Source: a virus. Taken from it: a stretch of DNA of 64,000 bases. The notes under the pieces are model-generated. The model was not told the origin of the DNA, did not search any database, and saw nothing but the letters and a program-made list of their open reading frames with translations. The translations under genes were made by a program, and so were the position numbers. Within the stretch, counting starts at the first letter, position 1. Each line of letters starts with the position of its first letter. The stretch is from positions 1 through 64,000 of the IMG/VR virus record IMGVR_UViG_3300043353_000042; one strand, given 5' to 3'. Positions 3,452 to 57,959 of this stretch are shown piece by piece.

Positions 3452-3902
3452 ATGCACGATCGTGCTCGTCGTAGGCGCTGTCAGCTCGCCACGGGCGCGC
3501 GCGTGCGAGACGACGACGACTGCACGTCCCGATTCCACCTGCGTCGTGCTCGACCGACAGGGCGCCAAAGGCGTGTGGTTTCAGCTCGCCCTTGCGGACG
3601 AATTGCGCACATCGCATCAGTTGATCCCAGAGCTTCGCTTGCAGCTGGAAAAATACAGCGAAGCCGACAGGAAACAGACCGATGAAGTCGCAGCGTTGCG
3701 AGGGGCGCTGACGTTACGTCAGCTTGCGACCGACCAACTGAAGGCCGAAGTCGACGCGGCGACCAAAGAGGCGCGCGCCGCGCAGGACGACGCTACAGCG
3801 GCCCGACAGGAGCTCGACCGATGGTGGCGCTCGCCGTTCCTGTGGCTAAGCGTAGGCGCGCTCGCAGGCGCGCTCGTAGGCATAGCCATCGCAAATCACT
3901 GA
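3411..3902 (+). CDS. coiled-coil protein with C-terminal TM segment
   Basis: 163-aa ORF overlapping the 3' end of the previous gene. C-terminal FLWLSVGALAGALVGIAIA. Start uncertain. Confidence 0.35.
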   Translation: MQKSRSCFRTLVCECTIVLVVGAVSSPRARACETTTTARPDSTCVVLDRQGAKGVWFQLALADELRTSHQLIPELRLQLEKYSEADRKQTDEVAALRGALTLRQLATDQLKAEVDAATKEARAAQDDATAARQELDRWWRSPFLWLSVGALAGALVGIAIANH

Positions 3903-3996
3903 ACGAATGATCGACGGAGTACTCGACCGCGTAGCTGTATTTTTCTGACTAGCAGCGAGCCGTGAAGCGCGGATGCACAGGGCACCGGGTAGCTAG

Positions 3997-5475: not shown

Positions 5476-6947
5476 GCAAGAAGGTCGACCGCAAAGAGCG
5501 CAAGAAGGCCGCGCCGGAGCAATACCCGGACGAAGGCCCGTGCCCGCTCGCCGAAGCTTACGGGCAGCTGTCACGGCCTGCGTTCGCTATTTGGATCCGC
5601 ATGTCGGTCGCGCCACGGGCCGAGCTACGCATCGGCCGGGCGAAGCTGTCGCGCTTGCTCGGCTACTCGCGCCGTCAAGGTGACGAGCTCTTGCGCGAGC
5701 TCGAACGCAAGGGCTTCGTGACGTTCATTGCACACGGTCCGTACCGTCGCACGGTGGTCGTGATCACCCGCAAGCCGCTCTTGGAACAGGGTCACAGTTT
5801 CACACGGTTTTCCGCGCTTCTGTTCTCGCCCATTTCAGAGATGCATTTTCGAGAACTGGGATCGCGGAAATCCATGTCGGTGGATCCTCCTAACAGCCAT
5901 GGTTTTATACGTGGGTTCACATCGTTACCCAAAAAAGTCAGTCAGTTACCAGAAAAGTTCACACAGTTACCCGTTTCGCCACGCACTTACCAATGCCCGA
6001 TCGAGTCACTTCATAAATCCATGGCTCCTGACGCTGCGCGCAGAACAGAAACCGGGGTGAAAATGGTCGCTTCAACGCCACGTGTAAAGCGCCGCAAGTT
6101 TGTAGCCGAAGACCGCTATTTCGACGAATCACTTGCGTATAGAGATCTAATTGGATCTATAAGATCTGAAGAATTAGAGAGAAGACGATTACTACGAAGT
6201 AGTAATCGCGCAAGACGCGATGTCCGCAACGCGGCGAACCGTGCCCGGGGAATCGAAGTGCTCGATTGGAACGACCTCGATGTCGTGACGTTCGATCCTC
6301 GACGCTCGAAGCATCGGCTCATGTGCACCTTGCTCGCTCGCAAGCCCCGGGATCCGGAACGGGCGGCGCTCGTGAAGCGACTCGAAACAGAGTTCTGCAG
6401 GCTGTACACGCGCTACCGACGTGCGGCCGAGCGAGCGAGCGGGCGCCCGGTGGTCACTTACGAGGTGACGAAGAAAGAGCGCAAGTATGCGGCGGCGGCC
6501 GGGGCCCTGTGCGTGCAGCGAGGCGTCACACCGCGTCAGCTCATGGAGTTTTGGCATGCGAACCTGAAGCACTTCAGGCGCGCGGCGAACATGCAGGTGC
6601 CGACGCTTTCGTTTTTGTCGGGCCCTGCGAACATCGACACCGTTGCGTGCGGGCTCGTGCTTGACGAGACTGCGCCCGGTGGAGCTCGCATCGGGACGAG
6701 TGATCCGGAAGACAACGGCGCGCGACCAAAGGCCGGCAACAGCTTCAGCGACACGACTCGGCTGGACGCTCGTTTGCGAAAAGGACTCGAAGGGGCCGGA
6801 TTTTCCACGCGCGAGCTGAATGATCGGTACCTGCTGACCGTGCAGAAGAACGCGCTCGGGATTGCCAACGGTCGGGACATATTCATCGGCAAGGGGTCCT
6901 TGCGCGATATGTCTCTGTGGGCAGCGAGAACCCTGTATGCGAAGTGA
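5457..6947 (+). CDS. replication initiator candidate with winged-helix N-terminal domain
   Basis: ATG at 5457 inside ORF 5298..6947. MarR-like LGYSRRQGDELLRELERKGFVTFI. Contains three direct iterons and an AT-rich patch. Lies between helicase and loader genes. Confidence 0.5.
   Translation: MFRRRLGKKVDRKERKKAAPEQYPDEGPCPLAEAYGQLSRPAFAIWIRMSVAPRAELRIGRAKLSRLLGYSRRQGDELLRELERKGFVTFIAHGPYRRTVVVITRKPLLEQGHSFTRFSALLFSPISEMHFRELGSRKSMSVDPPNSHGFIRGFTSLPKKVSQLPEKFTQLPVSPRTYQCPIESLHKSMAPDAARRTETGVKMVASTPRVKRRKFVAEDRYFDESLAYRDLIGSIRSEELERRRLLRSSNRARRDVRNAANRARGIEVLDWNDLDVVTFDPRRSKHRLMCTLLARKPRDPERAALVKRLETEFCRLYTRYRRAAERASGRPVVTYEVTKKERKYAAAAGALCVQRGVTPRQLMEFWHANLKHFRRAANMQVPTLSFLSGPANIDTVACGLVLDETAPGGARIGTSDPEDNGARPKAGNSFSDTTRLDARLRKGLEGAGFSTRELNDRYLLTVQKNALGIANGRDIFIGKGSLRDMSLWAARTLYAK
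5915..5972 (+). repeat. three direct iteron copies inside the initiator gene
   Basis: GTTCACATCGTTACCC (5915), GTCAGTCAGTTACC (5937), GTTCACACAGTTACCC (5957), spaced 20-22 bp. Degenerate copy AGTTTCACACGGTTTTCC near 5800. Confidence 0.75.
6120..6215. other. AT-rich patch with AGATCT repeats, a DNA-unwinding element candidate
   Basis: TATAGAGATCTAATTGGATCTATAAGATCTGAAGAATTAGAGAGAAG stands out from GC-rich surroundings, ~150 bp downstream of the intragenic iterons. Confidence 0.4.
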
Positions 6948-7855: not shown

Positions 7856-9295
7856 TTGGACTTCGATGCAGCCTACGAAGACGCCGTACTTGCGGAATCG
7901 CTGCGCGACGAAGCCTTCCTGAAGCGGGCGGCGCGTGTGTGCTCCGAGCACCATTTCGCGACCAAGGAACGTGCGTGGCTGTGGGGCGTCATTCACGCGA
8001 ACTGGACGAAGTACCACGAACGCACGTCGGGGAAGATCGTCGCGTCACGTGCGCGCCGGGACTTCGACAAGGCAGAGAAGCGCAAGCCCTACTTGCTACT
8101 GGCGCGCAAGGTGTTCCGGACGCGCTCGAAGAATCCGCAAGCCGTGCTCGAAGAGCTCGAACGCTTCGTGCGCCACGTGAATGTGCAGCTTGCGATCGAA
8201 GAGTCGGCGACGCTCTTAGAGAAGGGCAAGATCGACGACGCCGAACTGGCCATAGCAAAGGCCTCGCGTTCGGTCGCGCGTACGCGCGCGTACACGCACA
8301 TTCGGTGGATCGAAGAGTTCCCGGAGCGACAGGCGCAGCGCAAGTACGAGCGCGAACATCCTGACGAGTTCACCACGATCCCGCTCGGGTTCCCTCGGAT
8401 CGATAAGACGCTTTCAGGCGGCGGGCGCAAGGGCGAGCTCGCGCTTATCATGGGCACGACGGGCCGGGGCAAGTCGATCTTCCTGACGAACAGCGCACAG
8501 GCGTGTGTCGCGCGTGGCTACAAGGCGATCTATTTCGGCTTCGAGATGCCGGCACGACAGATCGCAGCGCGTCAAGACTCACGTTGGACGGGCCTGCAAT
8601 ACTCGAAGTTCAAGGGTTACGACTTCAAGCCGAGCGAGCTGCGCACCGTGCGCAGGCGCCTGAAGAAGGCTCGAAAGCAGTTTCGTAACCGGCTGCACAT
8701 CGTGTCGATGCCCGTGCGCAGCGCGACGATTCAGGACGTGCGCAACGCGATCGAAGACCTGCGACAGGATCACGGGTTCGAGGCCGATGCGATCTTCTTG
8801 GACAGCGCCGATCACCTGCGCGCGCTCGACACCTACGGTGGCAACTTTCGATTGCAGCAAGCCGAAGTGTATTGGGCCGCGAAGGAGCTCGCCGAAGAAG
8901 ACGGCTACTTCGTCATGAGCTCGACACACGCCGGGCGTGAATGGGCGACCAAGGTGGCGACGGCAGAAGCGTCGAGCGAGGCATACGACAAGAGCCGAAT
9001 CGCGGACATGGTCATGTCGATCAACGACCCGGCCGAGATGAAGCGCAAGGGCCGCAAGACGGTACTTGCAGACGATGACGACGACTTCGAAGACGACGGC
9101 GACGAGATCGGCGAGCCCACCGTCAAGGAAGGCGCGAGGCTGATGGAGCTGTATCTAGGAAAATATCGCGACGGCGACTCGCGTTTCAAAGTGAACGTCG
9201 AGTGCGACTTCGCCTGCATGACGATGAAAGAAGTCAAGGAAGGCGACGCCCATGATGACGACAGCGACGACAGCGACGGCAAAGACGAGAAGTGA
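7856..9295 (+). CDS. DnaB-like replicative helicase with acidic C-terminal tail
   Basis: Walker A GELALIMGTTGRGKS and Walker B-like AIFLDSADHL. DnaB-N-like N-terminus. C-terminus DDDDDFEDDGDE...DDSDDSDGKDEK. Confidence 0.75.
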   Translation: MDFDAAYEDAVLAESLRDEAFLKRAARVCSEHHFATKERAWLWGVIHANWTKYHERTSGKIVASRARRDFDKAEKRKPYLLLARKVFRTRSKNPQAVLEELERFVRHVNVQLAIEESATLLEKGKIDDAELAIAKASRSVARTRAYTHIRWIEEFPERQAQRKYEREHPDEFTTIPLGFPRIDKTLSGGGRKGELALIMGTTGRGKSIFLTNSAQACVARGYKAIYFGFEMPARQIAARQDSRWTGLQYSKFKGYDFKPSELRTVRRRLKKARKQFRNRLHIVSMPVRSATIQDVRNAIEDLRQDHGFEADAIFLDSADHLRALDTYGGNFRLQQAEVYWAAKELAEEDGYFVMSSTHAGREWATKVATAEASSEAYDKSRIADMVMSINDPAEMKRKGRKTVLADDDDDFEDDGDEIGEPTVKEGARLMELYLGKYRDGDSRFKVNVECDFACMTMKEVKEGDAHDDDSDDSDGKDEK

Positions 9296-10097
9296 CATTG
9301 GTGACAGATGGGCATGCGCTTCTGATTGGCTCGCGACAAGCGGGTCGCCTTGGCTCGTGTTTCTGTGCGACGCGTTCGAGGCGATGAAGCTCATGCCTGA
9401 CGGCGTGGTCGACCTCGTCGTGACCGACCCGCCCTATGCCTCGCTCGAAAAGTACCGAGACAGCAAGGCGCGCATTCGCAAGTACGAGCGAGAGAAGGCC
9501 GCGGGCACGCTCACGGGCACGCGCATACCGCGCCTGCGCGAGTGGTTCCCCATCATGCCGAATGAACGCTTCCCGGAGCTCTTAGCCGAGCTCTATCGCG
9601 TGATGGCGCCGGACTCTCACTGCTACATTTTCTGCGACGACGAAACGAGCGACGTGATCAAGGCCGCATGCGTCGCGATGGCGGCCGAGCGTGGCGACAA
9701 AGGCGCTTTCACATGGTGGAAGCGCATCGTGTGGGACAAGCTTCACCGCGGGCAGGGCTACCACTATCCGAATCAACACGAGTTCGTCGTGTTCCTCGAA
9801 AAGGGCAAGCGCAAGCTCACTGGCCACAGTCACACGTCGGTGCTCGCGTGCAAGCGCGTGTCGAAGGGCTCGCTCGGTGGTCGCTTGCCGGGCCCGACCG
9901 AGAAGCCGGTCAGTCTGATCGCGAAGCTGATCGAAAACAGCTCGAAGCCCGACGAGCTCGTCTTCGATCCGTTCTGTGGTCGAGGTGCCACGGGTGTCGC
10001 GGCGCTCTTCGCCAAGCGACAGTTTCTAGGGCTCGACGTGCAGCGCAAGGCCGTGCGGATCTCGCGTGGGCGCCTACGCCACGTCGAAGCCGCGTAA
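9252..10097 (+). CDS. DNA N6-adenine/N4-cytosine methyltransferase (beta class)
   Basis: Motif IV VVTDPPYAS precedes motif I FDPFCGRGATG. Start ambiguous (ATG 9252 or in-frame GTG 9357). Confidence 0.85.
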   Translation: MMTTATTATAKTRSDIGDRWACASDWLATSGSPWLVFLCDAFEAMKLMPDGVVDLVVTDPPYASLEKYRDSKARIRKYEREKAAGTLTGTRIPRLREWFPIMPNERFPELLAELYRVMAPDSHCYIFCDDETSDVIKAACVAMAAERGDKGAFTWWKRIVWDKLHRGQGYHYPNQHEFVVFLEKGKRKLTGHSHTSVLACKRVSKGSLGGRLPGPTEKPVSLIAKLIENSSKPDELVFDPFCGRGATGVAALFAKRQFLGLDVQRKAVRISRGRLRHVEAA

Positions 10098-23918: not shown

Positions 23919-24000
23919 TAGGTAGTTCCGCAGTGCTCTGTTGACCCTCGAACGATGTCGGGAACCGGGGCCGAGCCAGTACGGGCGGCCCCTTTCTTTT

Positions 24001-25077
24001 ATGGCCAAGAAGACCGCGAAGACCGCGAAGCGCAAGGCTCGACTCGACTCGCCGTCGGACGTGATTGCGGACTACCTCGCCGGCATGAAGGCCGACAAGG
24101 CCGTGACGAGTCCGGTGCGTGTGTTGAGCGATGTCGCGTATCGCAAGCGCGTGCGCGGCGTGTTGTCGACTCACTCGGCTACGCTCGACGCAGCGATCGG
24201 CCGCGGCGGGTTTCCGCTGTCGCGCGTGTCGATCCTGCACGGCAAGGAAGGGTCGGGCAAAACGACGATCGCGCTTCACCTGTGCGTCGAAGCGCAGCGG
24301 CGCGGCGGTGTGGCCGTGTTCCTCGACAAAGAACACAAGATGGATCCCGACTACGCGGCGAAGCTCGGTGTCGACCTGTCGCGGCTCGTGATGCCGCCGA
24401 CGCCGACCCTCGAAGACGTGATCACGTACATCAAGGCCACCATCAGGCGTGCGCGAGAGATTCGGAAGAAGACGAAGCGGGCCGTTCCATTCGTGATCAT
24501 CGTCGACAGCCTGAACGCCTGCAAGGCGTTCGAAACGCTGGAAACGCCGACGGGCAAGAAGCGCTACCCGACCGAGGCGCGCATATGGTCCGAAGAGCTG
24601 CCCGGGATCTGTGAAGCGCTTTCGAGTGAACACGTGGCGCTTGTGTTCGTGTCACAGGTGCGCAAGAAGATGAACGTCATGTTTGGCAGCGATGAAGAGA
24701 TGGCGGGGGGCAACGCGCCCCGGTTCTTCGCATCGCTGATCGTGTACGTGACGCGTGTTGGCACCGAGAAGGACGGCGAGAAAACGAAGGTTGGAAGCTC
24801 GATTGAAACCGAGTGCAAGAAGAATCAGATCGGGCCGCCGTTCCGCAAGGCGCGCTTCGCGATCTACTGGAATCGCGGCGTCGACTACGAGCACAGTCTC
24901 GTGCTGCAGCTCGAAGTGATGGGGCTCGTCAAAAAGGGAAAGCACAGCGCGCTGACCGTAGGCGGCATTGATCTCGGTCAGGGCCACACCGCGGCGGCGA
25001 AGACGATTCGCGAGCGGCCGAAGCTGCGCGCGAAGCTCGTCGAAGTGTTCTACAAGCGCATGGGTTGGGACACATGA
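24001..25077 (+). CDS. recA: RecA recombinase
   Basis: GGFPLSRVSILHGKEGSGKTTIALH (Walker A), AVFLDKEHKMDPDYAAKLGVD, Walker B VIIVDSLNA. ATG 24001 chosen. Confidence 0.85.
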   Translation: MAKKTAKTAKRKARLDSPSDVIADYLAGMKADKAVTSPVRVLSDVAYRKRVRGVLSTHSATLDAAIGRGGFPLSRVSILHGKEGSGKTTIALHLCVEAQRRGGVAVFLDKEHKMDPDYAAKLGVDLSRLVMPPTPTLEDVITYIKATIRRAREIRKKTKRAVPFVIIVDSLNACKAFETLETPTGKKRYPTEARIWSEELPGICEALSSEHVALVFVSQVRKKMNVMFGSDEEMAGGNAPRFFASLIVYVTRVGTEKDGEKTKVGSSIETECKKNQIGPPFRKARFAIYWNRGVDYEHSLVLQLEVMGLVKKGKHSALTVGGIDLGQGHTAAAKTIRERPKLRAKLVEVFYKRMGWDT

Positions 25078-25271
25078 CCAATGGGTCCTGGACATGTCAC
25101 GCAAGGCCGCCCGTTCTGAACGGTAAGCCTTGCGGACACGTCAACAGGTTCCGCAAGGGTCCGCGCGCGAACATTGAGTGTTGTGCAGCGTGTGGCTGCA
25201 CAAAGATCGCATCGGATTTCCGAGCCAGCACGAAGGGCCGCAACACGCGTGCCAAGGCGGCTAGATCGTGA
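25074..25271 (+). CDS. small Cys-rich protein
   Basis: 65 aa, ATGA overlap with the recA stop. Cys at WTCH...PCGH...ECCAACGC. Confidence 0.35.
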   Translation: MTNGSWTCHARPPVLNGKPCGHVNRFRKGPRANIECCAACGCTKIASDFRASTKGRNTRAKAARS

Positions 25272-26392
25272 GCGCCGAAAGCTATCGGTCGTTGCACATC
25301 AGCGACATCCACATGAGTAACTCGCTGCCGCATGCGCGGCAGACCGACAAGCGCGGTGTGACCGACAGGCTTGCCGATCAGATCGGGTTGTGGGATCGCG
25401 TGTTCCGCACGGCCGAGCGCGCGCGCTGCGAGCACATCTTCATTCAGGGCGATCTGTTCGATCACTCGCGCACCGACGCGATCACGCTGACTGAGACGTT
25501 TCGCGCGATTGGTCGAGCTCCGGTGCCGGTGTTCGTCGTGCCGGGCAACCATGACGGCGTGAACACGCGCGGCGAGCGCTTCACGGTCGAGGCGCTGTCG
25601 GAGATCAAGGGCTGCAGCTACATGGAAACGGGCGCGACATTCAGCCCGCGACCATGGCTGACGTTTTGGCCGTTGGAGTTCAGCCCGATCGAGCGGACGC
25701 GCGAGGCGCTGAAGGCGATGGAGCTGAAGCGCGATGTGACGAACGTGCTACTGATGCACAACTCGATCGTTGGCTGCACGCATAGCGGATGGACATGCGA
25801 AGAAGGCCAGGGGCTCGAAGCGTCCGAGCTGACCGACCACTTCGATCACGTGTTGTCCGGACACTTTCACGACCCGCAAGAGTTTGGACGCAACGGGCGT
25901 TATTTGGGCGCACCGATGCATCACCGGTTCGACGACGTCGGGCGACCGGCTGGCTTTTGGGTCATGGAGTGGCGTCGATCTGGTGTGCGTAAAGAAGTGT
26001 TCGTCGACGGCGGGTGCCCGCGCTTCCACACGGTGCGCTTCGCGGACAAGGACGCGCTGACAGGGCTCAAGGCGCGCGCGGGCGACTACGTGCGCGTGGT
26101 CGTTCGGTGCACGCACACGAAGCTCGTGAAGCGTCAGATCGCAGCGGCGCGCTACGTCGACGAGCTCGCTGCGAAGGGGCTTCGCGCCAGCTGGGTTCAC
26201 GATCCTGTCTATCATCACGTGTCGCGCTTGCCGACGAGCAAAGACGGCAAGGTCGAAGTGCTGACGCCTCGCAAGATGGTGCCGAGCTACGTCGAAGCGG
26301 TCGAGGTCGATACGAGTGGGCTCGATCGCAAAGCACTGAAGCGAATCGGTCGCGAAATCTTCGTTGCAGTCGAGGGCGAATGGCGCGGCTAG
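25268..26392 (+). CDS. sbcD: SbcD/Mre11-family nuclease
   Basis: Calcineurin-like phosphoesterase motifs LHISDIHMS, QGDLFD, VPGNHD, LMHNS, SGHFH. Confidence 0.85.
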   Translation: MSAESYRSLHISDIHMSNSLPHARQTDKRGVTDRLADQIGLWDRVFRTAERARCEHIFIQGDLFDHSRTDAITLTETFRAIGRAPVPVFVVPGNHDGVNTRGERFTVEALSEIKGCSYMETGATFSPRPWLTFWPLEFSPIERTREALKAMELKRDVTNVLLMHNSIVGCTHSGWTCEEGQGLEASELTDHFDHVLSGHFHDPQEFGRNGRYLGAPMHHRFDDVGRPAGFWVMEWRRSGVRKEVFVDGGCPRFHTVRFADKDALTGLKARAGDYVRVVVRCTHTKLVKRQIAAARYVDELAAKGLRASWVHDPVYHHVSRLPTSKDGKVEVLTPRKMVPSYVEAVEVDTSGLDRKALKRIGREIFVAVEGEWRG

Positions 26393-28251
26393 TCAGCATG
26401 CAGGCCGAGAACTTCGCGGGCTTCGAGGCGTTCGATATGACGCTCGGCAAGCAGGGGCTCGTGTTCGTGATCGGCGACAACCGCGACACCGAAGCTGCGA
26501 CGTCGAACGGCGCGTGCAAGTCGGGCCTGTTCAAGGCGCTCGGATGGGGCCTGTATGGCGAAGCCATCGACGGCGAGGCGGGCGATCGCGTCATTCGCCG
26601 GGGCACGAAGAGCGCGCGTGTGGTCGTGAACATCATCGACGGCACGGACGCGTACAGCGTCGTGCGTGAGCGATGGAAGCAAAGCCCGAAGCTGTACCTC
26701 GAAAAGAATGGCGAGAACGTGTCGGCGTCGAAGGGCGACTTGCAGCGCGAGGTCAATGCGCTGATCGGCGTCGACTGGGAAGGCTTCCGCAACACGGTGC
26801 TGTACGGGCAGGGCGACCGTGACCGGTTCGTGTATCCGACCACGAAGGACAGTGACCGCAAGCGGATCTTGCATCGCATCCTTGGCACGGGCGTGTTCGA
26901 GTTGTGCCATGCCGAAGCGAAACAGCGACGCCTCGCGATCGAGAAGGAACGCGACGGCGCGCTTGCCGACGTCGAGCGCCTGACGCAGCGCATCGGCGAT
27001 CACGATTTGGTCGCGCTGTGCGCGCGCAAGGACGGCTACATCGACGAAGTTGCAGTGCGCGTGCGCGAGCTCACGGAGGCCGCGCGCGAGCTCGGCGAGA
27101 AGGCCAAGACGGTCGGCGCGACCATCGACGCGCAAGCGCTTCGGGACGAGCTCGACGTGCTCGACAACAAGCTCACGGCCGGGCGCACGGCCATTGCGGA
27201 CGCGAACGACGCCAAGCGAAGGGCCCGGGGAGAGTCACGAGAATGGTCGCAGGTCAAGGCCAATCTGAATGCAGAGCTACGGGCCCAAACGTCGGCGCTG
27301 TCGCAGCTCAAGGGCGAGCGGTGTCCGGTCTGCACGGGCGAGCTGACGAAGGGTCATGCTGCCACGCACAGGGCCGGGCTCTTGGCCCGGGGCGATCAGC
27401 TGATGGCCGAGCTTCGGGCGTCCGAGACGAGCGAACAGGAGGCCGCCAAAGCCGAGCGAGCGATCGAACGTCGCGTCGGTGAGCTCGAAGACGCGCAAGG
27501 GCGCCTGACCGAGCGTCGTGCGCGCGCGAGCGCCGAACTGGACTCGCTCGACGGGGCCAAGGCGCGCGTGCGTGAGCTCGTCGCGCGCTCGACCGAAAAG
27601 GCCAGTGAAGCGCGTGTGCTCCGAGATGCGCCGAACCCCTACCTCGCGCCTTATCTGACGGCGCGAAAGAAGGTTCGCGCGCTGAAGGCCGAGCGACGGG
27701 CCGCGCGCGCGACGGCCGAAGCGAAGACGACCGAGCTTGAACTTCTGACATTTTGGGTGCGCGGGTTCGGACCGACGGGTATACCGTCCTTTGCGCTCGA
27801 CACCGTCATGCCGCTTCTGACTGATCGGGCGAATCACTACTTGCAGACGCTGTCGTGTGGCGACATCGCGATCCACTTCAGTACGCAACGCGAGCTGAAG
27901 GGCGGCGACCTGCGCGACGAGATTGGCATCACGTGGACGATCGAAGGGATCGAAGGCTACCCGCCAAGCGGCGGACAGTGGAAGAAGATGGAGATCGCCA
28001 CGAACTTTGCGCTGATGGATCTCGTGCGGACACGCGAGGGCTCGCACGTGAATATCTTGTGCCTCGACGAGTGTCTTGACGGGCTCGACGCGGAGGGCCG
28101 GCAACGGGTTGTCGAGCTCTTGCAGGCGATGCGCAAGGAGCGGGAAAGCGTCTTCCTGATCTCGCATGACCCCGACCTCGCAGAAGCGTTCGAGCGCACG
28201 CTTATCGTCATCAAGGAAAACGGCGTGTCTCGCTTGGAGCGCGCGATGTGA
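26380..28251 (+). CDS. sbcC: SbcC/Rad50-family ATPase
   Basis: N-terminal P-loop region, long coiled coil with zinc hook CPVC, Walker B/D-loop ILCLDECLDGLD. Start 26380 or 26398. Confidence 0.8.
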   Translation: MARLVSMQAENFAGFEAFDMTLGKQGLVFVIGDNRDTEAATSNGACKSGLFKALGWGLYGEAIDGEAGDRVIRRGTKSARVVVNIIDGTDAYSVVRERWKQSPKLYLEKNGENVSASKGDLQREVNALIGVDWEGFRNTVLYGQGDRDRFVYPTTKDSDRKRILHRILGTGVFELCHAEAKQRRLAIEKERDGALADVERLTQRIGDHDLVALCARKDGYIDEVAVRVRELTEAARELGEKAKTVGATIDAQALRDELDVLDNKLTAGRTAIADANDAKRRARGESREWSQVKANLNAELRAQTSALSQLKGERCPVCTGELTKGHAATHRAGLLARGDQLMAELRASETSEQEAAKAERAIERRVGELEDAQGRLTERRARASAELDSLDGAKARVRELVARSTEKASEARVLRDAPNPYLAPYLTARKKVRALKAERRAARATAEAKTTELELLTFWVRGFGPTGIPSFALDTVMPLLTDRANHYLQTLSCGDIAIHFSTQRELKGGDLRDEIGITWTIEGIEGYPPSGGQWKKMEIATNFALMDLVRTREGSHVNILCLDECLDGLDAEGRQRVVELLQAMRKERESVFLISHDPDLAEAFERTLIVIKENGVSRLERAM

Positions 28252-29336: not shown

Positions 29337-30263
29337 ATGAAGGTCACGATCATCGACGGCAAGAACTTGCTTTGGCGCAACGCGGACGCGTTTAGCGAGC
29401 TGACTGCGCACGTCGACGGCGAAGAGCTTCGCACGGGCGGCATGTACGGCTTCATGGCCGGGCTCCTGCGCGTTCGATCGAAGTATCGCGCGCCCGTGAT
29501 CGTGGCATGGGAAGGCACCGACAATTTCCGCATGAAGCTGTGGCCCGATTACAAGCGTAAGCGCGTTGAAGACGCGACACCGGCGCAAGCAGAGCTGTCG
29601 CGCGAGGTCACGGCGAGTGAGTTTCGGCTGAACGAGCTCCTGTCGCACGCGGGCGTGCGTCAATACTACGGCGTCGAGTGCGAGGCCGATGACGTGATCG
29701 CAACGCTGGCGACGACGCTGCGACGTAAGAGCTTCGAGGTCACGATCTATACGGGCGACTCGGACTTGCGTCAGCTCGTCGGGCCGGGCGTCACGGTCGC
29801 ATCGCCGGGCTTTCGCAGTGGCGGTGATACACTGTATGACTTCCAAGCCGTGGTCGAGCGCTACGGCGTGCGACCGCGACAGCTGCCCGACCTGAAGGCG
29901 CTCGCGGGCGATAGTAGTGACGGCATCCCGGGCTTACCCGGCATCGGTGAAAAGACGGCGTCGGCGCTGATTGCGACGCTTGGCGGCTTGAAGGGCGTGA
30001 TCGACTGCGCGGGCGCGTTGCCGACTTCGAAGCACGGCGAGCGCTGGCCTGTGGCCGAGCGATTCCGTGGCGTCGTGACGCGCGACGCGAGCAAGGCCGA
30101 ACTCTTCTTGCAGCTGACCCGGGTAAAGACCGACGTGGGCGTGCGCCCGGTTCCGGTGGCGCTCGATCGCGAACAGGTGATTCGACTCTTGCGTGCGTAC
30201 AAGTTTCGCACCCTGTCGAGTGCTGCCGAGCTCTTGGAGATCTTGAGGTTGGGCCGTGATTGA
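29337..30263 (+). CDS. 5'-3' exonuclease / flap endonuclease
   Basis: IIDGKNLLWR, YKRKR, TGDSDLRQL and H3TH LAGDSSDGIPGLPGIGEKTA. Confidence 0.85.
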   Translation: MKVTIIDGKNLLWRNADAFSELTAHVDGEELRTGGMYGFMAGLLRVRSKYRAPVIVAWEGTDNFRMKLWPDYKRKRVEDATPAQAELSREVTASEFRLNELLSHAGVRQYYGVECEADDVIATLATTLRRKSFEVTIYTGDSDLRQLVGPGVTVASPGFRSGGDTLYDFQAVVERYGVRPRQLPDLKALAGDSSDGIPGLPGIGEKTASALIATLGGLKGVIDCAGALPTSKHGERWPVAERFRGVVTRDASKAELFLQLTRVKTDVGVRPVPVALDREQVIRLLRAYKFRTLSSAAELLEILRLGRD

Positions 30264-33321: not shown

Positions 33322-33337
33322 AGGCCGCCAAGATGGT

Positions 33338-33355
33338 CGGGTAAGTGTGTGAACG
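33338..33355 (-). repeat. isolated iteron copy upstream of parB-like gene 1
   Basis: CGGGTAAGTGTGTGAACG, same variant as 47750-47766. Half-site CGTTCACACACTG at about 33524. Confidence 0.6.
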
Positions 33356-33780: not shown

Positions 33781-34623
33781 ATGTCTGTGAAGCGTGGGAC
33801 CTTGTTTAGGTTCGATCCGGACGAGCTTATCGTCATCGGACTCGATACAAAGGACGGCCCGGAGCACGAATTGTGGGATGAACGGATTCATCTTCCGCTT
33901 GAAGAGTCGATGGTGATGAACATCATGACGTTTGGCGTGAAAGAGACGGTCACACTCCGTAAGGGGTCAAAGGGATACGAGGTCGTCAATGGTCGGCGTC
34001 GTGTTCTTCACGCTCGCGAGGCGAATAAGCGCCTCAAGAAGACGGGCGAACCACGTGTGCGCGTCCCTGCGACCGTCGAGTCGGGCGACGAAATGCACAT
34101 GGAAAAGCTCACAATTTCGCTAAATGAGATTCGGCGCGACGACGACACGCTCACAAAGGCCGAGAAGTGCATGCGACTGCTTCATCGCAACGGCGGAGAC
34201 TACAAGGACGCAGCCCTCGTCTTCGGAGTGTCGGTCGCGGCGATCAAGAATTGGGCCAAGGTCGCCGAGCTAACTCCGAAGGTGAAGAAGGCCGTAGCGG
34301 CGGGCGAGATAAGTGCTTCGGCGGCGGCGGAGCTTCACGGGCTCGATAAGGACGACCAGATCGCCAAGCTTGACAAGCTCGTCGGCAACGCCAAGGCAAG
34401 CGGACGGAAGAAGACCACGGTATCGAAGGTCAAAAAGGAGACGGGCCATCGGGTCACCGTGTCGAAGCGCGTGCTGTTGAAGATTGTCACCGATCAACAG
34501 CTGGCGACGAGCGTTCATGCAGAGATGCTCTCTGGGATAAAGCTCGCGCTGGGCGTGTACGTCCCGCCCGAGACAACGAAGCTCGGAAAGCTCCTGATAC
34601 AGGCGGGATTCAAGTACGACTGA
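33781..34623 (+). CDS. ParB/KorB-like DNA-binding protein, paralog 1
   Basis: ParB N-terminal arginine patch VVNGRRRVLHAREA. HTH-like VFGVSVAAIKNWAK. Confidence 0.75.
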   Translation: MSVKRGTLFRFDPDELIVIGLDTKDGPEHELWDERIHLPLEESMVMNIMTFGVKETVTLRKGSKGYEVVNGRRRVLHAREANKRLKKTGEPRVRVPATVESGDEMHMEKLTISLNEIRRDDDTLTKAEKCMRLLHRNGGDYKDAALVFGVSVAAIKNWAKVAELTPKVKKAVAAGEISASAAAELHGLDKDDQIAKLDKLVGNAKASGRKKTTVSKVKKETGHRVTVSKRVLLKIVTDQQLATSVHAEMLSGIKLALGVYVPPETTKLGKLLIQAGFKYD

Positions 34624-35999: not shown

Positions 36000-36133
36000 A
36001 CCAAAGCAGACCAACCGCGGAAAGTTTCTTCCGAGTCTGGCTTGCGAAATCTCGATCTTCGGGCCATCGATAAGCCTTGTGGCGCGTAACCTAGCCCGCA
36101 CACACGATGGAAGAACCCGAGGAGTCGGTAATC

Positions 36134-36994
36134 ATGGCAGCTGCAATTATGCCGGTAAAACGTGGAAATCTGTATCAGTTCGATCCCAACGAGCCAGTGA
36201 TTGTCGGACTCGACACAAAGGACGGGCCCGAACACGAGCTTTGGGACGAGCGGATCCGGCTGCCGCTCGAAGAATCCATGGTGCTAAACATCATGGCGGT
36301 CGGCGTCAAAGAGACTGTGATCTTGCGCCTCAACAAGGGGGCCTCGCGTTACGAGGTCGTCGACGGCCGTGGTCGCATTCGCCACGCTCGCGAGGCGAAT
36401 AAGCGCCTAAAGAAGCTAGGCGAAGAGCTCGTGTATGTGCCGGCGCTTCTCGAACAGGGCGACGAAACGCACATGGCCGGGCTCGCGATCTCGCTGAATG
36501 AGATTCGACGCGACGACGACACGCTCACAAAGGCCGAGAAGTGCATGCGGCTCTTGCAGCGCAATGGCGGCGATCACAAGGCCGCGGCGATCGTCTTCGG
36601 CGTGTCGGTCGCGGCGATCAAGAATTGGGCCAAGGTTGCCGAGCTGACGCCGAAGGTCAAGCGAGCGGTCGCGAACGGCGAGATCAGCGCGTCAGCGGCG
36701 GCCGAGCTGCACGGACTCGAAAAGGAGGCGCAGATCGCCAAGCTCGATAAGCTCGTCGGGCACGCCAAGGCGAACGGGCGCAAGAAGGCGACCACGGCGA
36801 GCGCGAAGAAGGAGACGGGCAAGCGTACCGCGGTGCCGAAGCGCGTCTTGCTGAAGCTCGTAGGCGACGAAGAGCTGTCTTCGGGCGTGCCGCCTGAAGT
36901 CATTTTCGGGATCAAGCTCGCGCTCGGCTCACACCTGCCCGGGGAAACGTCGAAACTTGGAAAGTTGCTTGTGCAGGCGGGTTTCAAATACTAG
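36134..36994 (+). CDS. ParB/KorB-like DNA-binding protein, paralog 2
   Basis: Largely collinear with paralog 1, with long identical DNA stretches. Arginine patch altered to VVDGRGRIRHAREA. GGAG lies 8 nt before ATG 36134. Confidence 0.75.
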   Translation: MAAAIMPVKRGNLYQFDPNEPVIVGLDTKDGPEHELWDERIRLPLEESMVLNIMAVGVKETVILRLNKGASRYEVVDGRGRIRHAREANKRLKKLGEELVYVPALLEQGDETHMAGLAISLNEIRRDDDTLTKAEKCMRLLQRNGGDHKAAAIVFGVSVAAIKNWAKVAELTPKVKRAVANGEISASAAAELHGLEKEAQIAKLDKLVGHAKANGRKKATTASAKKETGKRTAVPKRVLLKLVGDEELSSGVPPEVIFGIKLALGSHLPGETSKLGKLLVQAGFKY

Positions 36995-45300: not shown

Positions 45301-45552
45301 ATGAAGCTGGACGACCTACGCGCGCGCCTCCGCGCGGACAAGCGCGCGATCACGAAGCCCAAAGAGCGGCCGAAGCCGAAGCGCCGTTACCGGTGCAGCA
45401 AGTGTCGCAAGCCGCGCGAGCCTGCGAACCTGACCGATCCCGATGTCGCGGAAATCATCAGGGAATCGAGCGGCACGCGTCCGACGCATGCCTACCGGTG
45501 TCGCGAGTGTCGGATCATTTGGCTCGCTTGTCCGGTGGTCGGTGCGAAATGA
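45301..45552 (+). CDS. MKL(D/E)(D/E)LR zinc-ribbon paralog 1
   Basis: MKLDDLRARL..., CSKC...CREC. Confidence 0.5.
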   Translation: MKLDDLRARLRADKRAITKPKERPKPKRRYRCSKCRKPREPANLTDPDVAEIIRESSGTRPTHAYRCRECRIIWLACPVVGAK

Positions 45553-45833
45553 AGCTCGAAGAACTTCGCCAGCGCCTGCGAGAACCGAAGCGCCGGAAGC
45601 CGGTCCCGAAGCTACGCAAGCGCCGGAAGCGCGCCGCTGCGAGTCCCCCGCAGCCGCCAATGCACCAAAACTGCCGATCGAGCGCTACGCCGCTCACTGC
45701 GAGCAAGAATCCGCGCGATTGGCTTACGAAAACGCTCGTCGCGCTGTGCGACAAGTGCGGCAAGTCGTTCACGCCCGATCTCAAGGTCGGCTACGTGCCC
45801 TCGACGTGCGCGAAGTGCGCGTCGTATCTGTGA
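45549..45833 (+). CDS. MKLEELR zinc-ribbon paralog 2
   Basis: ATGA overlap with paralog 1. CDKC...CAKC. Confidence 0.5.
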   Translation: MKLEELRQRLREPKRRKPVPKLRKRRKRAAASPPQPPMHQNCRSSATPLTASKNPRDWLTKTLVALCDKCGKSFTPDLKVGYVPSTCAKCASYL

Positions 45834-45841
45834 GGTGCGAA

Positions 45842-46210
45842 ATGAAGCTCGAAGACCTCCGCAAGCTGTACGAAGCGCCCGAACTGCCGAAACAGCCGAA
45901 AATGGAGGCGATCACAGGAACCGACCTCGCACATGGCCCGGACAGTGCCGCAATGATGCTTCGGTGCATAGAGTGCGACCTCGTGATGACGATCACGGAT
46001 CCTGCGAGCCCGACGCTTGTCCGCGCCCACTGTCCTAGATGCGACACAGGCTGCAGCATGTGCAAGCGGCTACGCGACGCTGACGGCAACACGCTCCGGA
46101 TACGCGCAACAGGCACCGAGAAGCGTAGGGTGTGTGACCAGTGTAGCTACGACTACTACGACATCCTAGCTGACCGTTTCACGTCGGTGAAAATCGGCGA
46201 TGAAGCTTGA
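45842..46210 (+). CDS. MKLEDLR zinc-ribbon paralog 3
   Basis: CIEC...CPRC...CSMC...CDQCSYDYYDILADRF. Confidence 0.5.
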   Translation: MKLEDLRKLYEAPELPKQPKMEAITGTDLAHGPDSAAMMLRCIECDLVMTITDPASPTLVRAHCPRCDTGCSMCKRLRDADGNTLRIRATGTEKRRVCDQCSYDYYDILADRFTSVKIGDEA

Positions 46211-46640
46211 AGACCTTCGCGCGCTGTTTTTCGACCACGATCTAGACGACGACCCGCAAGTGGAGGGGCAGGGGCCGCTTTGCGTGTGCTGTCGGCGGAC
46301 CACGACCGACATGCTCGAACATCCGAGGCACGGAGCGACATGCCTGCCTTGTCGCGAGCACTGCTACGACATCCTTGCTGACCGCTTCGATCACGTCGAG
46401 GTCACCGAAGCGCTCATATCCGCTTCGACGTGCGAGCGCTGTGGGCACAGCCTACGCCTACGCATGCGCAAAAGCTCCGGGTTCCGACATCGTTGTGGTC
46501 GAGCCGTGTGCGTGTTTCACAACGTAGGCAAAATCTCGCCCATATCACACGCGCTGCGGAAGTCGTTTTCGGTCACGCACTTTCCCGCATGGAATACTAG
46601 CGGTTCACGTACTTACCCGCGGCCCCAAACCACACCCTAA
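46200..46640 (+). CDS. MKLEDLR zinc-ribbon paralog 4
   Basis: CVCC...CLPCREHCYDILADRF...CERC. The 3' end runs into the first iteron (46602), so the true stop or function of the tail is uncertain. Confidence 0.4.
   Translation: MKLEDLRALFFDHDLDDDPQVEGQGPLCVCCRRTTTDMLEHPRHGATCLPCREHCYDILADRFDHVEVTEALISASTCERCGHSLRLRMRKSSGFRHRCGRAVCVFHNVGKISPISHALRKSFSVTHFPAWNTSGSRTYPRPQTTP
46602..46619 (+). repeat. iteron copy (variant)
   Basis: GGTTCACGTACTTACCCG. Confidence 0.6.
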
Positions 46641-47227
46641 AGAGCGGACCTCACCGAATGCATGTCAGCATGCGGAAAGGCAAAGATGCTTAGGCGCTTC
46701 CCCGCAAGTGGAGGGGATTGGCCCAACACAGGTCAGAACGTACCCCCTAGCAACACAGCCAAATCATGTCCCACACACGTACAGTATGCATAAGAGCCAT
46801 TTCGGAAACGCACACGCAAGCGCACCCATGAAGGCCCTAATCCGCCAGAACAACCCTATCAAGCAGATTCCCGAGCACCACATACAGTAAGAGGGTAAGC
46901 GTGCTCGTCTGTCCCCCTGTACATGCACACGCGCTAGCGTATGCAACGCCATGCATCTATGGGCAATGCGTCAGCGCTATCAGCCCGGTTGCGATAGTGT
47001 ATCCGTGCCTGCATGCGTGGGCGTGCGCGCGCGCGTATGTATAGGGGCCATGCTGAACTGTTTGAGTGTGCACACCGAGCAATGGCCACGGATTCGCGAA
47101 CGTGCACACGCCCGGTCACTGCGCCTTCACTTCGCCCGCCTCGCCCCCCGCGGCACCGGCCTCTTGCCCCGCCCTGCCTTCCCCGCCACAGACCGATGGC
47201 TCCGGACAGCAGGGCTGACCTGCCCAT

Positions 47228-47384
47228 CGGTCAGGTAGTTACCCTACCTCGTTCACATAGTTACCCGGTGCTGGGTAACTGTTAGAACGATAGCGGGTAA
47301 GTGTTAGACTAACAGTCAGGTAGTTACCCGGCCATGGTATGCACACGGGTAACTGTGTGAATGATGTCGGGTAACTGTATGACG
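47228..47384. repeat. iteron cluster A: 7 copies in mixed orientation
   Basis: Forward copies at 47228-44, 47250-68, 47314-31. Reverse copies at 47271-90, 47294-310, 47346-63, 47368-84. Copies 47250-68 and 47271-90 form a 41-bp imperfect palindrome. Confidence 0.85.
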
Positions 47385-47578
47385 CCCCTACCCCCCACCC
47401 CACTGGTGAGGGCTCCCTATGACATCTGGCGACCTGTCGGCGAGTGATGGCGGACCCAACAAGCGGACGCTTCTGTCAGCATGGTCATATGGGCGGAATG
47501 TCGCCCGCCATAGACATCGGTCGAAAGCGTGTTGCATCACTTCGCCGCCCTGTCGCTGCGACCGGATTGCCGAACTGT

Positions 47579-47594
47579 CGGGTAACTGTTTGAC
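47579..47594 (-). repeat. iteron copy
   Basis: CGGGTAACTGTTTGAC. Confidence 0.7.
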
Positions 47595-47749
47595 ACCCGA
47601 AAGCGCTCACCGCTGCATGGTCCGCTTGTCCGCGCTACCGCGCGATAGCTTGACCATGCCCCCGGTTATTTCCCGGGCCCCCGGGGCCGTGTTCGGAAAT
47701 CCGAAGGGCAAGGGCCGGGAAGTAAAATATTCGGGCCCGAAGCGATGAC

Positions 47750-47766
47750 CGGGTAAGTGTGTGAAC
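47750..47766 (-). repeat. iteron copy (variant)
   Basis: CGGGTAAGTGTGTGAAC. Confidence 0.65.
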
Positions 47767-47824
47767 CCTTCCGGACGCAATACCCTGGACAGCTCGGCAC
47801 GTCGACGGTTCGGTCAAGCAGGAC

Positions 47825-47967
47825 CGTTCAGACAGTTACCCGTGTACCGTCCCCGGGTTCGTTCAAGTAGTTACCCGGGCGACCGTTCAGACAGTTACCC
47901 GGTCAATACCCGGGACAGCTTCGTAGCGACGAGGTTCGGGCGGGCGGTCGTTCACGTAGTTACCCGG
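47825..47967 (+). repeat. iteron cluster B: 4 direct copies
   Basis: CGTTCAGACAGTTACCCG (47825), CGTTCAAGTAGTTACCCGG (47860), CGTTCAGACAGTTACCCGG (47884), CGTTCACGTAGTTACCCGG (47949). Confidence 0.9.
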
Positions 47968-48089
47968 TGATGGGCATCGCTCTTTCGCCTTTCTACTCGT
48001 CGTCGTCTTCGTCGTCTCGGTCTTCGAAGGGCTCGCTCGCGAGGTCGCGGGCAACGAGCCAAAGCAGGAACGCATACAGGAGCAAGCGG

Positions 48090-48500
48090 TCAATTGACAT
48101 CGGTCGGCGATGGCACTTCGTCGGTGATGTAGTCTTCTTCGAAAATCGTTCGTAGGCCCGTCGCGCGTTCGAGGTCAGTCGCTATCGTGGCGAACTGGTC
48201 ACGGATCTCGCCAGCCGTGCGACTCAGCGAGTGAAGAAAGGCGAGCGTCATCTTCACGCGGTCGAGGTTGTTGAGGTTCAGCGCCACGACCACCTTGCCG
48301 GTGTCCGAATCAAACTCCATGCCCGACCAGTCAGGGAACACGGGAAACCAAGCGGTTTGTTCCCGTTCGATGACGAGCGCGAGCCCTCCTGCGTTGAGCT
48401 TTGCGAAGATGCGCTTGATCGCTTCGCTCATGTTTGCATCGCATTCGGCAACGTGCGGCGCGTGTCGTCTCTTTCGCTTGCGTCGTTTCTTCTTACTCAT
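48090..48500 (-). CDS. hypothetical protein with poly-basic N-terminus
   Basis: ATG at 48500 (MSKKKRRKRKRRH...). An iteron sits 15 nt upstream. Confidence 0.5.
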   Translation of the reverse strand: MSKKKRRKRKRRHAPHVAECDANMSEAIKRIFAKLNAGGLALVIEREQTAWFPVFPDWSGMEFDSDTGKVVVALNLNNLDRVKMTLAFLHSLSRTAGEIRDQFATIATDLERATGLRTIFEEDYITDEVPSPTDVN

Positions 48501-48514
48501 GGTCGCCCCCTGTG

Positions 48515-48532
48515 CGTTCAAACAGTTACCCG
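48515..48532 (+). repeat. iteron copy immediately upstream of minus-strand gene 48090..48500
   Basis: CGTTCAAACAGTTACCCG. Confidence 0.75.
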
Positions 48533-48853
48533 ATTGTTGCGGCGCGCGAGAAAGATCACGCCCGCGAGAATCCAGCCGAGCCCGAAGCCTTGTAAGTTGC
48601 TCGCGGTCGGCCAGACGTAGTGAAAGAACAACGGCGAGCCCGTCAGCGCGACGAACACGGCCCGCCATCGAACCGCGCCCCATATGCGGCGAGGCACGAC
48701 GACGATTGCGCCGTCAGGTGTTTCGCTTAGCTCGGTCACGTGTCCGAAGCGTGAGGCGACAAGCACTGCGACGTCGCGCACGATGTTGTAAGGCGCGGTC
48801 GAGTACAGCGTGTACAGCTTCATTTTGTCGTCGTCGTTTGTTGGTTCATTCAT
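48518..48853 (-). CDS. membrane protein
   Basis: ATG at 48853. C-terminal hydrophobic segments AVFVALTGSPLFF and GFGLGWILAGVIFLA. Confidence 0.45.
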   Translation of the reverse strand: MNEPTNDDDKMKLYTLYSTAPYNIVRDVAVLVASRFGHVTELSETPDGAIVVVPRRIWGAVRWRAVFVALTGSPLFFHYVWPTASNLQGFGLGWILAGVIFLARRNNRVTV

Positions 48854-49157
48854 CTTCGTCGGGCTTTCGGCGTCCATGCGCGGGATCGCGGGTGGCAAGC
48901 AACAGCAGGAAGGGCAGGGGCGGCTGTCGCTCGGTCACTCGATAGCGCGACCCGTCCGGCCGTTCGATGAACACGCGATCCTGAATCCCGTTGTCGGCCT
49001 GGCCGCCCGATGAAGCGGACGGCTGTACGACTTCGAGATCGCAAAGGCGATCGCGCGCAGCGCGCAAGGCGTCTTCTTCGCTGTCGTGCTCGGTCAGTGG
49101 GTAGTCAGCGCCTTCGAAGGTGTCGTGCCCGATCAGCTTCCATCGGCCGGTGCTCAT
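48846..49157 (-). CDS. hypothetical protein
   Basis: 103-aa ORF overlapping its neighbours by a few nt. Confidence 0.5.
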   Translation of the reverse strand: MSTGRWKLIGHDTFEGADYPLTEHDSEEDALRAARDRLCDLEVVQPSASSGGQADNGIQDRVFIERPDGSRYRVTERQPPLPFLLLLATRDPAHGRRKPDEDE

Positions 49158-57620: not shown

Positions 57621-57626
57621 GCTAAT

Positions 57627-57664
57627 AAACTAGCATGCGTTCGCTTCAACGCAACAACTTTTTG
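57627..57664 (-). promoter_or_regulatory. promoter cassette class I on minus strand (M1), leaderless type
   Basis: Minus-strand reading: AAAAAGTTGTTGCGTTGAAGCGAACGCATGCTAGTTT, then ATTAGC, then ATG. Confidence 0.6.
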
Positions 57665-57665
57665 C

Positions 57666-57959
57666 CTAGTCTTCCATGCGGCACAGGTCGAACCAAATTC
57701 CGATGGAGATCCAAGGGCGACCTTCGGGCGGCGCAGTCCACAGGCCAGCCTTGTCGGCGCGAACGAGGATCGTTTCTCGGTCGAGGTGCGGATAGTGTCG
57801 GGCGCAGTGCTTCGCCACAAAGGCGGCCGGGTCGACTGGTGGCACGGTCGTGTCGGCGGGGGCGAAGCCATCGCGCGACAGCCATTCGGTCAGGGCTTCG
57901 GCGTGGTCGGAGATCAGGTAACCGCGAAGGATGCACTCAAGGGCGACGTTCGGATCCAT
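57666..57959 (-). CDS. hypothetical protein
   Basis: 97-aa ORF. Confidence 0.5.
   Translation of the reverse strand: MDPNVALECILRGYLISDHAEALTEWLSRDGFAPADTTVPPVDPAAFVAKHCARHYPHLDRETILVRADKAGLWTAPPEGRPWISIGIWFDLCRMED

Follow-up and report, generated by a model that had tools for sequence, protein, structure and literature searches.

The 64,000-nucleotide stretch of DNA analysed here (positions 1 to 64,000 of the IMG/VR virus record IMGVR_UViG_3300043353_000042, hereafter the window) comes from an uncultivated phage of about 105 kb that encodes its own replisome and is probably virulent. At 46571-48533 it carries a large field of short repeated elements, or iterons, and the same element recurs in tandem some 41 kb away inside an open reading frame (ORF), 5457-6947, whose product looks, from its modelled fold, like an origin-binding protein. 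The chances are about even that the field is an accessory initiator-binding array, a replication-control locus of the kind represented by oriR, incA or crr, and not the site at which opening of the DNA begins. The origin itself probably lies elsewhere. The same motif stands at both places, the field is conserved, the gene contains an origin-like anatomy that is absent from the field, and a distant lineage possesses a matched pair of arrays of its own. From these observations we infer that the product of 5457-6947 binds the sites, and that the loaded field acts by handcuffing or by blocking forks.

The iteron, GTTCA-NNN-AGTTACCCG(G), is an asymmetric element of 18 bp present in 15-16 copies within 46571-48533. 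Allowing up to three mismatches (<=3), its consensus CGTTCASAYAGTTACCCGG has 12 matches in the 64-kb window against 0.04 expected, a number that 0/100 shuffles reach, and the core AGTTACCC has 13 matches against 0.44 expected. The consensus search itself matched 5915 and 5957 outside the field, both of them part of the four-copy array in the gene. Copies were located by repeat finding together with a position-weighted scan, which recovered all 15 copies of the 18-19-bp element given in a preliminary description made from the sequence alone and added one more, degenerate, at 46571. The cluster of seven with its palindrome, the four direct copies and the singletons are arranged as that description had them, down to the last singleton 15 nucleotides upstream of a minus-strand gene (48516 versus an ATG at 48500). 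Its list of copies was sound for the field but missed four tandem copies at 5915-5995 in ORF 5457-6947 and one at 33337; its remark that the copy number and the dual layout are unusual for a phage stands.

It is within the gene that the anatomy of an iteron origin is found. At 5915-6176, iterons with a 21-bp period are joined to the GC minimum of the window (0.32), and the 30-, 40- and 60-mers that are richest in AT, taken over the window as a whole, are found 120-180 bp downstream of this array. The iterons encode the linker FTSLPKKVSQLPEKFTQLPVSPRTYQ, CAGTTACCC being translated as Q-L-P to give a repetitive FTSLPKKVSQLPEKFTQLPVSP. The AT-rich segment 6117-6176 encodes ordinary protein with rare AT-rich codons, which points to selection at the level of the DNA. 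Two related loci, L106 and L107, have the in-gene array arranged as in the window, and in L106, L107, L116 and L118 a locus of about 21 kb has its 60-mer of lowest GC at the equivalent position of the homologous gene (8% GC in L118). Given that iterons within the gene followed by an AT-rich segment constitute the layout of ori-lambda and of SPP1 oriL, the origin proper is, by this analogy, most likely inside the initiator gene. The field departs from the layout of an iteron origin in its irregular spacing, its mixed orientation and its want of an AT-rich unwinding element: the minimum GC of any 60-mer is 0.45 in the field versus 0.32 in the initiator gene, and the field of the relative L109 and the array of L130 have minima of 0.48 and 0.45, respectively. 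Of the origin role first proposed for the field, the link to replication and to ORF 5457-6947 was upheld, but the field is probably not the origin, the iteron and AT-rich anatomy lying in the gene.

The presumed initiator has 37 homologs; aligned, they are conserved in the N-domain and the C-domain and hypervariable in the linker that joins these. In AlphaFold models the N-domain is a winged helix (predicted local distance difference test, pLDDT, 78; predicted template modelling score, pTM, 0.71), the linker is disordered and the C-domain is helical. The protein matched neither a family in Pfam or PHROG nor, at E <= 0.001, RepA_N (PF06970). The best matches of the N-domain in the PDB are the staphylococcal RepA N-domains 4pql/4pt7/5kbj (E 2.7e-3, template modelling (TM) score 0.50, 92-95 aligned columns), with MarR-type winged helices ranking next in the Foldseek search, a small margin behind 4pql_B; 4PT7 and 4PTA are RepA_N initiators (PMC7145576). 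Weak matches in BFVD repeatedly carried the names replication initiator, replisome organiser and GpO N-terminal, those of GpO type with E about 0.3. The genes that follow the initiator encode a DnaC/IstB-like AAA+ loader (6862-7635; PF01695, 8e-11) and a DnaB-like helicase (7856-9295), an order that parallels lambda O-P and SPP1 38-39-40. The earlier choice of ORF 5457-6947 as initiator candidate is supported by the four tandem motif copies in its linker-coding region and by its position upstream of loader and helicase. An identical initiator was found on a 107,690-bp contig of the Joint Genome Institute (JGI). Among 185,579 species genomes no initiator relative was detected, and there is therefore no sign of a plasmid-prophage lifestyle.

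Comparison with related contigs indicates that the field is under selection. A field with the same consensus at the same position is present in seven relatives from other samples. One of these, the IMG/VR genome L083/L109, found by a pattern scan, is collinear with the window, with 65-78% DNA identity in genes and the same motif at the same place. The other six (L144, L145, L147, L148, L151 and L152) come from other sequencing runs, were reached through homologs of the 192-amino-acid flank protein (52-78% identical), and each carry 8-15 motif copies at the same position. Between the in-gene and field sites of the window's clade the spacers and the arrangement differ and the core is the same across eight genomes, which argues for selection at both sites.

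The architecture of the field is conserved along with its motif. In an alignment of six genomes, with the order and orientation of sites read relative to an invariant non-iteron box, both are fixed with few exceptions (the single iteron of L147). All six fields follow one plan: an outpost pair of iterons on the left, at a distance of about 750-800 bp, then a spacer that contains a C-rich, very GC-rich tract, the cluster, the box, one or two single iterons and a right-hand array. The outpost pair, which in the window lies at or just beyond the 3' end of gene 46200-46640, whose ORF 3' end crosses both iterons, is retained in L109, L144, L145, L147, L148 and L152. The cluster, in the order + + - - + - -, occupies -200 to -27 from the box in most aligned relatives; the single iteron found at 47578 in the window lies at +154 to +197, on the minus strand in five of the six and on the plus strand in L147; and the right-hand array comprises 2-6 direct copies, some with small ORFs inserted between them. 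Across genomes the box reads CACT(G/A)GTGAGGGCTCCC, and 3' of it lie about 110 bp of conserved non-coding DNA including a GC hairpin, GGGCGGAATGTCGCCC (47491-47506). Box and block together (47401-47510) are better conserved than the iterons across the six genomes; a search for a conserved RNA fold in the non-iteron block gave nothing convincing, and the region may be a site for a second factor. The right arm is an insertion hot spot for small iteron-flanked ORFs (L109 16800-17900; L148, on the reverse complement, 3700-4330).

More distant lineages keep the in-gene site while changing its sequence. Each has a phased tandem array in the gene, and the repeat at this position differs among them: four copies of 22 bp, AGTCGGACTTTCCCAGG, in L117, and three copies of 21 bp, CGTCACACACTTGCACG, in L116. 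The P0016 lineage still uses the window motif in a degenerate form. The 105,832-bp genome of L117 has a second four-copy array of its own repeat in the same orientation; it occupies an intergenic gap of 470 bp, separated from the gene by 41.3 kb, and the flanks of the two arrays are unrelated. Given that the distal array of L117 carries the in-gene repeat of L117, the distal site follows the in-gene specificity.

Several searches led elsewhere. A triple-core pattern scan of IMG/VR returned 104 loci, of which L083 alone was a true relative, and a specific paired-iteron pattern found nothing in metagenome or genome collections. Homologs of the 103-amino-acid right-flank protein belonged mostly to unrelated bacterial contigs, and one locus reached in this way, L108, has no field. 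A conserved 106-amino-acid protein led to L110-L114, phages that are more distant and lack a field; the many repeats of L113 are scattered elements of terminator or promoter type, not iterons. Neither close nor distant DNA matches to the field or its surroundings were found among 50,697 GenBank phage records.

The field stretch is non-coding. Its ORFs lack the GC1>GC2<<GC3 pattern typical of real genes in this 62% GC genome, and substitutions relative to five relatives show no preference for any of the three codon positions. A 109-amino-acid ORF at 47419-47748, called by some gene callers, was rejected on these grounds (GC1/2/3 0.55/0.62/0.66, mismatches even across codon positions). The earlier statement that 46640-48090 holds no credible ORF survives as a non-coding call and needs correction at its right edge: a conserved 35-amino-acid ORF fills 47993-48100, which moves the end of the gene-free stretch from 48090 to 47992. 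Scans of the field for promoters and terminators gave nothing above chance, and it contains no DnaA boxes, no IHF consensus sites and no parS-like palindrome. Neither Rfam families nor tRNAs were detected anywhere in the window. The GC-skew check that had been suggested revealed no informative switch at the field or at the in-gene site.

The field is also set apart by its composition. GATC is absent from 46560-48000 (0 versus 12.3 expected) and over-represented in the rest of the window (532 versus 222 expected; 8.5 per kb overall, 7.4 in other intergenic DNA), and the fields of L109, L144, L145, L147 and L148 are likewise depleted (0-3 versus 11-18 expected). TCGA is depleted in the field too. 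The phage encodes an N6/N4 DNA methylase (9252-10097). A repeat of about 40 bp, AAAAGTTGTTGCGTTGAAGCGAAACGCTGCTAGTCTATG, has promoter-like character and stands upstream of small genes in 13 copies, none of them inside the iteron field; it is shared with the relatives L083 and L113 and is probably an early or middle promoter of the phage. The coordinates of the main features are collected in Table 1.

Table 1. Features of the iteron field, the initiator gene and associated elements in the window (strand in parentheses)
Feature	Position	Details and basis
Iterons, + strand (starts)	46603, 47229, 47251, 47314, 47826, 47861, 47885, 47950, 48516	Repeat finding and position-weighted scan
Iterons, - strand (positions)	47271, 47293, 47345, 47367, 47578, 47749	Repeat finding and position-weighted scan
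Left outpost	46571..46620 (+)	Two direct iterons 32 bp apart: 46571-46587 (degenerate) and 46603-46620
Iteron-free spacer, about 590 bp	46641..47228	Patchy conserved boxes CCTATCAAGC..ATTCCCGA
C-rich tract, 74-80% GC	47100-47200	Inside the spacer, directly left of the cluster; core CTCGCCCCGCCCCC.TCGCCACAC conserved in relatives
Core cluster, seven iterons	47229..47384	Order + + - - + - -; direct neighbours 22 bp apart
Head-to-head iteron pair	47250-47290	Imperfect palindrome of about 40 bp within the core cluster
Invariant non-iteron box CACTGGTGAGGGCTCCC	47401..47417 (+)	Six-genome alignment
Single iteron	47578..47595 (-)	Repeat finding and position-weighted scan
Single iteron, ACTTACCC variant	47749..47766 (-)	Consensus search, repeat finding and position-weighted scan
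Right-hand array, four direct iterons	47826..47967 (+)	Starts 47826, 47861, 47885, 47950
Conserved 35-amino-acid ORF, MSIDRLLLYAFLLWLVARD..., acidic tail	47993-48100 (-)	Overlaps stop codon of gene 48090-48500; homologs in L109, L147, L148
Outlying iteron	48516..48533 (+)	Overlaps stop codon of gene 48518-48898 (-); 15 nucleotides upstream of the ATG (48500) of gene 48090-48500 (-)
Isolated iteron	33337..33354 (-)	In a 459-bp gap upstream of the first ParB-HTH (helix-turn-helix) gene (33781-34623)
Presumed iteron-binding initiator, 496 amino acids	5457..6947 (+)	Winged helix about 31-103, disordered linker 111-230, conserved helical C-domain
In-gene array, four tandem iterons	5915..5995 (+)	21-bp period; GTTCACATCGTTACCCAA, AGTCAGTCAGTTACCAGA, GTTCACACAGTTACCCGT, GCCACGCACTTACCAATG
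Presumed DNA-unwinding element	6117..6176 (+)	32% GC versus 61.7%; three AGATCT within 25 bp
Two ParB-HTH proteins	33781-34623, 36107-36994	PF17762, about 1e-6
Promoter-like repeat AAAAGTTGTTGCGTTGAAGCGAAACGCTGCTAGTCTATG	+ near 34717, 38160, 38975, 39753, 40155, 40448, 40905, 41727, 42540, 42995, 43490, 44150; - 57625-57669	

In function, the closest analog of this arrangement is the oriL/oriR pair of SPP1. The gp38 protein of that phage binds repeats at two sites, oriL within gene 38 and oriR within a long stretch between genes, and stalling or collision of forks at gp38-oriR has been proposed as the trigger of the theta-to-sigma switch (PMC6316719, PMC3485210). In both phages one array lies in the initiator's own gene and a second at a great distance, within a non-coding stretch that ranks among the longest in the genome, and the distal segment of SPP1 hosts moron-type small genes (PMC6316719), which may be compared with the insertions in L109. 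No sequence similarity to gp38 was detected for the window's initiator, which has no Pfam or PHROG match. SPP1 oriR is organised as oriL is, with an AT-rich unwinding element and few direct repeats (PMC6316719), whereas the field has 15-16 copies in both orientations over 1.4-2 kb, in a fixed multi-part architecture with no unwinding element.

Other systems resemble one half of the arrangement or the other: by analogy, the in-gene half recalls lambda O with ori-lambda and the RepA_N plasmids, and the distal half incA or P4 crr. Membership in any of the compared families is not supported at the protein level. In lambda O, a linker joins the DNA-binding N-domain to a C-domain that recruits the helicase loader. 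As in lambda, four phased iterons and then an AT-rich segment lie in the linker-coding part of the initiator gene; unlike the window phage, lambda has no distal iteron field, and no sequence relationship is detectable between them. Ori-lambda is itself located inside gene O (PMC6022878). The best structural match for the N-domain of the phage protein is provided by the RepA_N plasmid initiators (pSK41 and pTZ2162 RepA; PLE RepA), although the TM score is only about 0.5 and the PF06970 profile is not matched. Weaver et al. are said to have placed the iterons of RepA_N plasmids, in 2009, within the rep gene; these are usually semi-palindromic around a poly-A tract, which the iterons of the window are not. 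RepA_N proteins bind iterons through the N-domain and have lineage-specific C-domains (PMC7145576). Among the distal counterparts, the field is like P1 incA in being an iteron cluster without an unwinding element, a DnaA box or an IHF consensus site. P1 incA is a second cluster of nine iterons, devoid of origin parts, that acts in cis or in trans by titration and handcuffing, and F incC and the extra iterons of RK2 are comparable loci. The AT-rich part of the P1 origin bears GATC-containing repeats, as does the in-gene AT-rich segment of the window phage (AGATCT). The two differ in that incA lies directly downstream of repA and the field 41 kb away, in the protein family concerned, and in that P1 is a stable plasmid in need of copy control whereas the window phage has no sign of a plasmid lifestyle. 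In P4, two separate clusters of the same short iteron, ori and crr, are bound by the alpha protein, a primase-helicase fusion; crr, two 120-bp direct repeats 4.5 kb from ori, is required in cis for replication. The likeness to P4 thus consists in a second, separate cluster of initiator iterons; the initiator of the window has no enzymatic domains, and its second cluster is far larger.

If the field is an accessory array, its operation can be outlined from these precedents. The winged-helix N-domain of the initiator would bind the 18-bp sites, and its C-domain would bring the loader (DnaC-like) and the helicase (DnaB-like) to the origin in the gene. With rising amounts of initiator, the 15-16 sites of the field, at a distance of 41 kb, would be occupied as well. 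So loaded, the field might then pair with the origin iterons and silence them by handcuffing or titration, in the manner of P1 incA (handcuffing is reviewed in PMC6090056 and PMC5397158), or it might build a tight complex of protein and DNA at which the fork stalls, as suggested for gp38 at SPP1 oriR. Either action, or both, would end origin-dependent theta replication in favor of a recombination-dependent, concatemer-forming mode, for which the phage has tools in RecA, SbcCD, the UvsW-like helicase, the 5'-3' exonuclease and ligase. The mode of action is proposed from precedent, namely SPP1 gp38 and P1 incA. A more ambitious form of the proposal, which we consider somewhat unlikely, makes the field a replication-switch device: a GATC-free multi-site initiator trap of fixed architecture, with a box for a second factor, that brings about a programmed theta-to-sigma switch. 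Forks from the in-gene origin would be stalled or captured there, RecA, SbcCD and UvsW-like enzymes would turn them into the first substrates of recombination-dependent concatemer synthesis, and the invariant box would mark a site of processing or cleavage.

A number of points weigh against the field as an accessory array. The initiator is presumed to bind the iterons on the basis of co-location, synteny and fold, and the fold matches are weak, none in Foldseek having E <= 0.001. It is not obvious why a phage that looks virulent should need to restrain its copy number as incA does. The analogy with SPP1 is incomplete, since oriR there possesses an AT-rich unwinding element that the field lacks. 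The two L117 arrays share their spacers as well (89 bp at 94%), which could be the result of concerted evolution, or of recent duplication rather than long-term co-variation, and the 16-mer of L116 has no second exact copy in the 84-kb partial contig. A transcriptional role may be indicated by the iteron at 33337 before a ParB-HTH gene and by the groups of iterons before small ORFs in L109. Finally, the model does not explain the invariant box or the strong avoidance of GATC in the field.

It is somewhat improbable that the field is a second origin that does fire, a true oriR working in parallel with the in-gene origin or later, and opened by initiator crowding, supercoiling or transcription instead of an AT-rich element. 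Its iterons are those of the in-gene array, and SPP1 has been described with two origins of one repeat type (PMC6316719). Within the field, GC content is lowest in the cluster, at 40-42% over 40-50 bp, and the strongly skewed C-rich tract beside it could favor R-loop formation. Neither the field nor its counterparts, however, have a segment comparable to the in-gene AT-rich element; no promoter-like sites rise above chance; and the mixed orientation and irregular spacing are unlike the phased tandem array in the gene of every lineage. The same want of promoter-like sites above chance speaks against a regulatory hub, in which the field would be an array of operators through which the initiator, or another winged-helix or helix-turn-helix regulator, controls neighbouring small genes. 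The copy 15 nucleotides upstream of gene 48090-48500 and the one upstream of the ParB-HTH gene would suit this idea, as would the groups of two to three direct iterons that in L109 precede small same-strand ORFs inserted in the right arm; head-to-head pairs resemble the dimer operators of the Rep proteins of iteron plasmids. We nevertheless regard it as improbable, since the field lies between convergent 3' ends with no gene there to regulate, the phage's own 13-copy promoter-like element is absent from it, the relatives L144 and L109 showed no copy at the position equivalent to 48516, and seven clustered sites are far more than an operator needs. The isolated iterons at 33337 and 48516 may still reflect a side role of the initiator in transcription.

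The preliminary description had also offered a centromere-like site for the ParB-like proteins, and a packaging or recombination locus, and neither is supported. That the field might be a centromere-like or DNA-organising site of one or both ParB-HTH proteins, serving partition of a plasmid-prophage or positioning of phage DNA, gains something from the presence of the two proteins and of an iteron upstream of the gene for the first, and some centromeres do have multi-copy sites in mixed orientation. The ParB_N score of one of the proteins is 14 bits, below the cut-off. No ParA occurs among the proteins scanned, the iteron is asymmetric and no palindrome resembles parS; a ParB site would leave unexplained why the initiator gene of every lineage contains the motif, and the absence of initiator relatives from species genomes gives no sign of a plasmid-prophage. 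A centromere is for these reasons very improbable. A packaging (pac/cos) or site-specific recombination locus, in which the repeats would be sites for a small terminase or a recombinase, is scarcely credible. The region is indeed a large gene-free stretch, and cosB, pac and the arms of attP contain repeated sites in mixed orientation, but no such function can be assigned to the genes beside the field, whose products match no Pfam or PHROG family, and the copies in the initiator gene would be left unexplained. Moreover, nine independent contigs run straight through the field and no contig ends there.

The window has no relative among GenBank phages, its best DnaE match being 34% identical, and the relatives in IMG/VR are contigs of 100-116 kb. 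The left 38 kb of the window constitute a replication and recombination module, with a UvsW-like helicase, the DnaC/IstB-like AAA+ protein, the DnaB-like helicase, the N6/N4 methylase, a primase-like protein and CobS/CobT-like proteins, as well as DnaE, RecA, SbcCD, a 5'-3' exonuclease, UDG, dCTP deaminase, the two ParB-HTH proteins and ligase. Included are a T4-like toolkit for recombination-dependent replication (UvsW-like helicase, RecA, SbcCD and 5'-3' exonuclease) together with the CobS/CobT-like proteins and DnaE (3997-5475, 23941-28251, 29337-30263). Directly left of the field are genes for two paralogous Cys-rich zinc-ribbon-like proteins, both starting MKLEDLR (45443-46210 and 46200-46640), a pair that is also present in L083. 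A few kilobases to the right of the field, L144 (1333-1593) and L151 (751-1074) have a gene with an Acb2/Tad1-hairpin domain (PF24729), of the anti-CBASS/Thoeris sponge family.

The end of origin-dependent replication and the switch to a concatemer-forming mode in phages are still argued mainly from SPP1 and T4. The present clade provides a sharply defined and directly testable pair, a presumed origin within the initiator gene and, far from it, a large conserved array of its sites, in a genome that encodes its own replisome and with an initiator of no described family. It also provides a rule for the annotation of uncultivated phages, namely phased repeats followed by a local GC minimum in a winged-helix gene upstream of a loader and a helicase, which served to locate a probable origin in the majority of the related lineages under study. 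If the field is a fork trap or a handcuffing partner, the control logic of plasmids would extend to large virulent phages; if it is a switch device, a large virulent phage would possess a genetically programmed theta-to-sigma switch.

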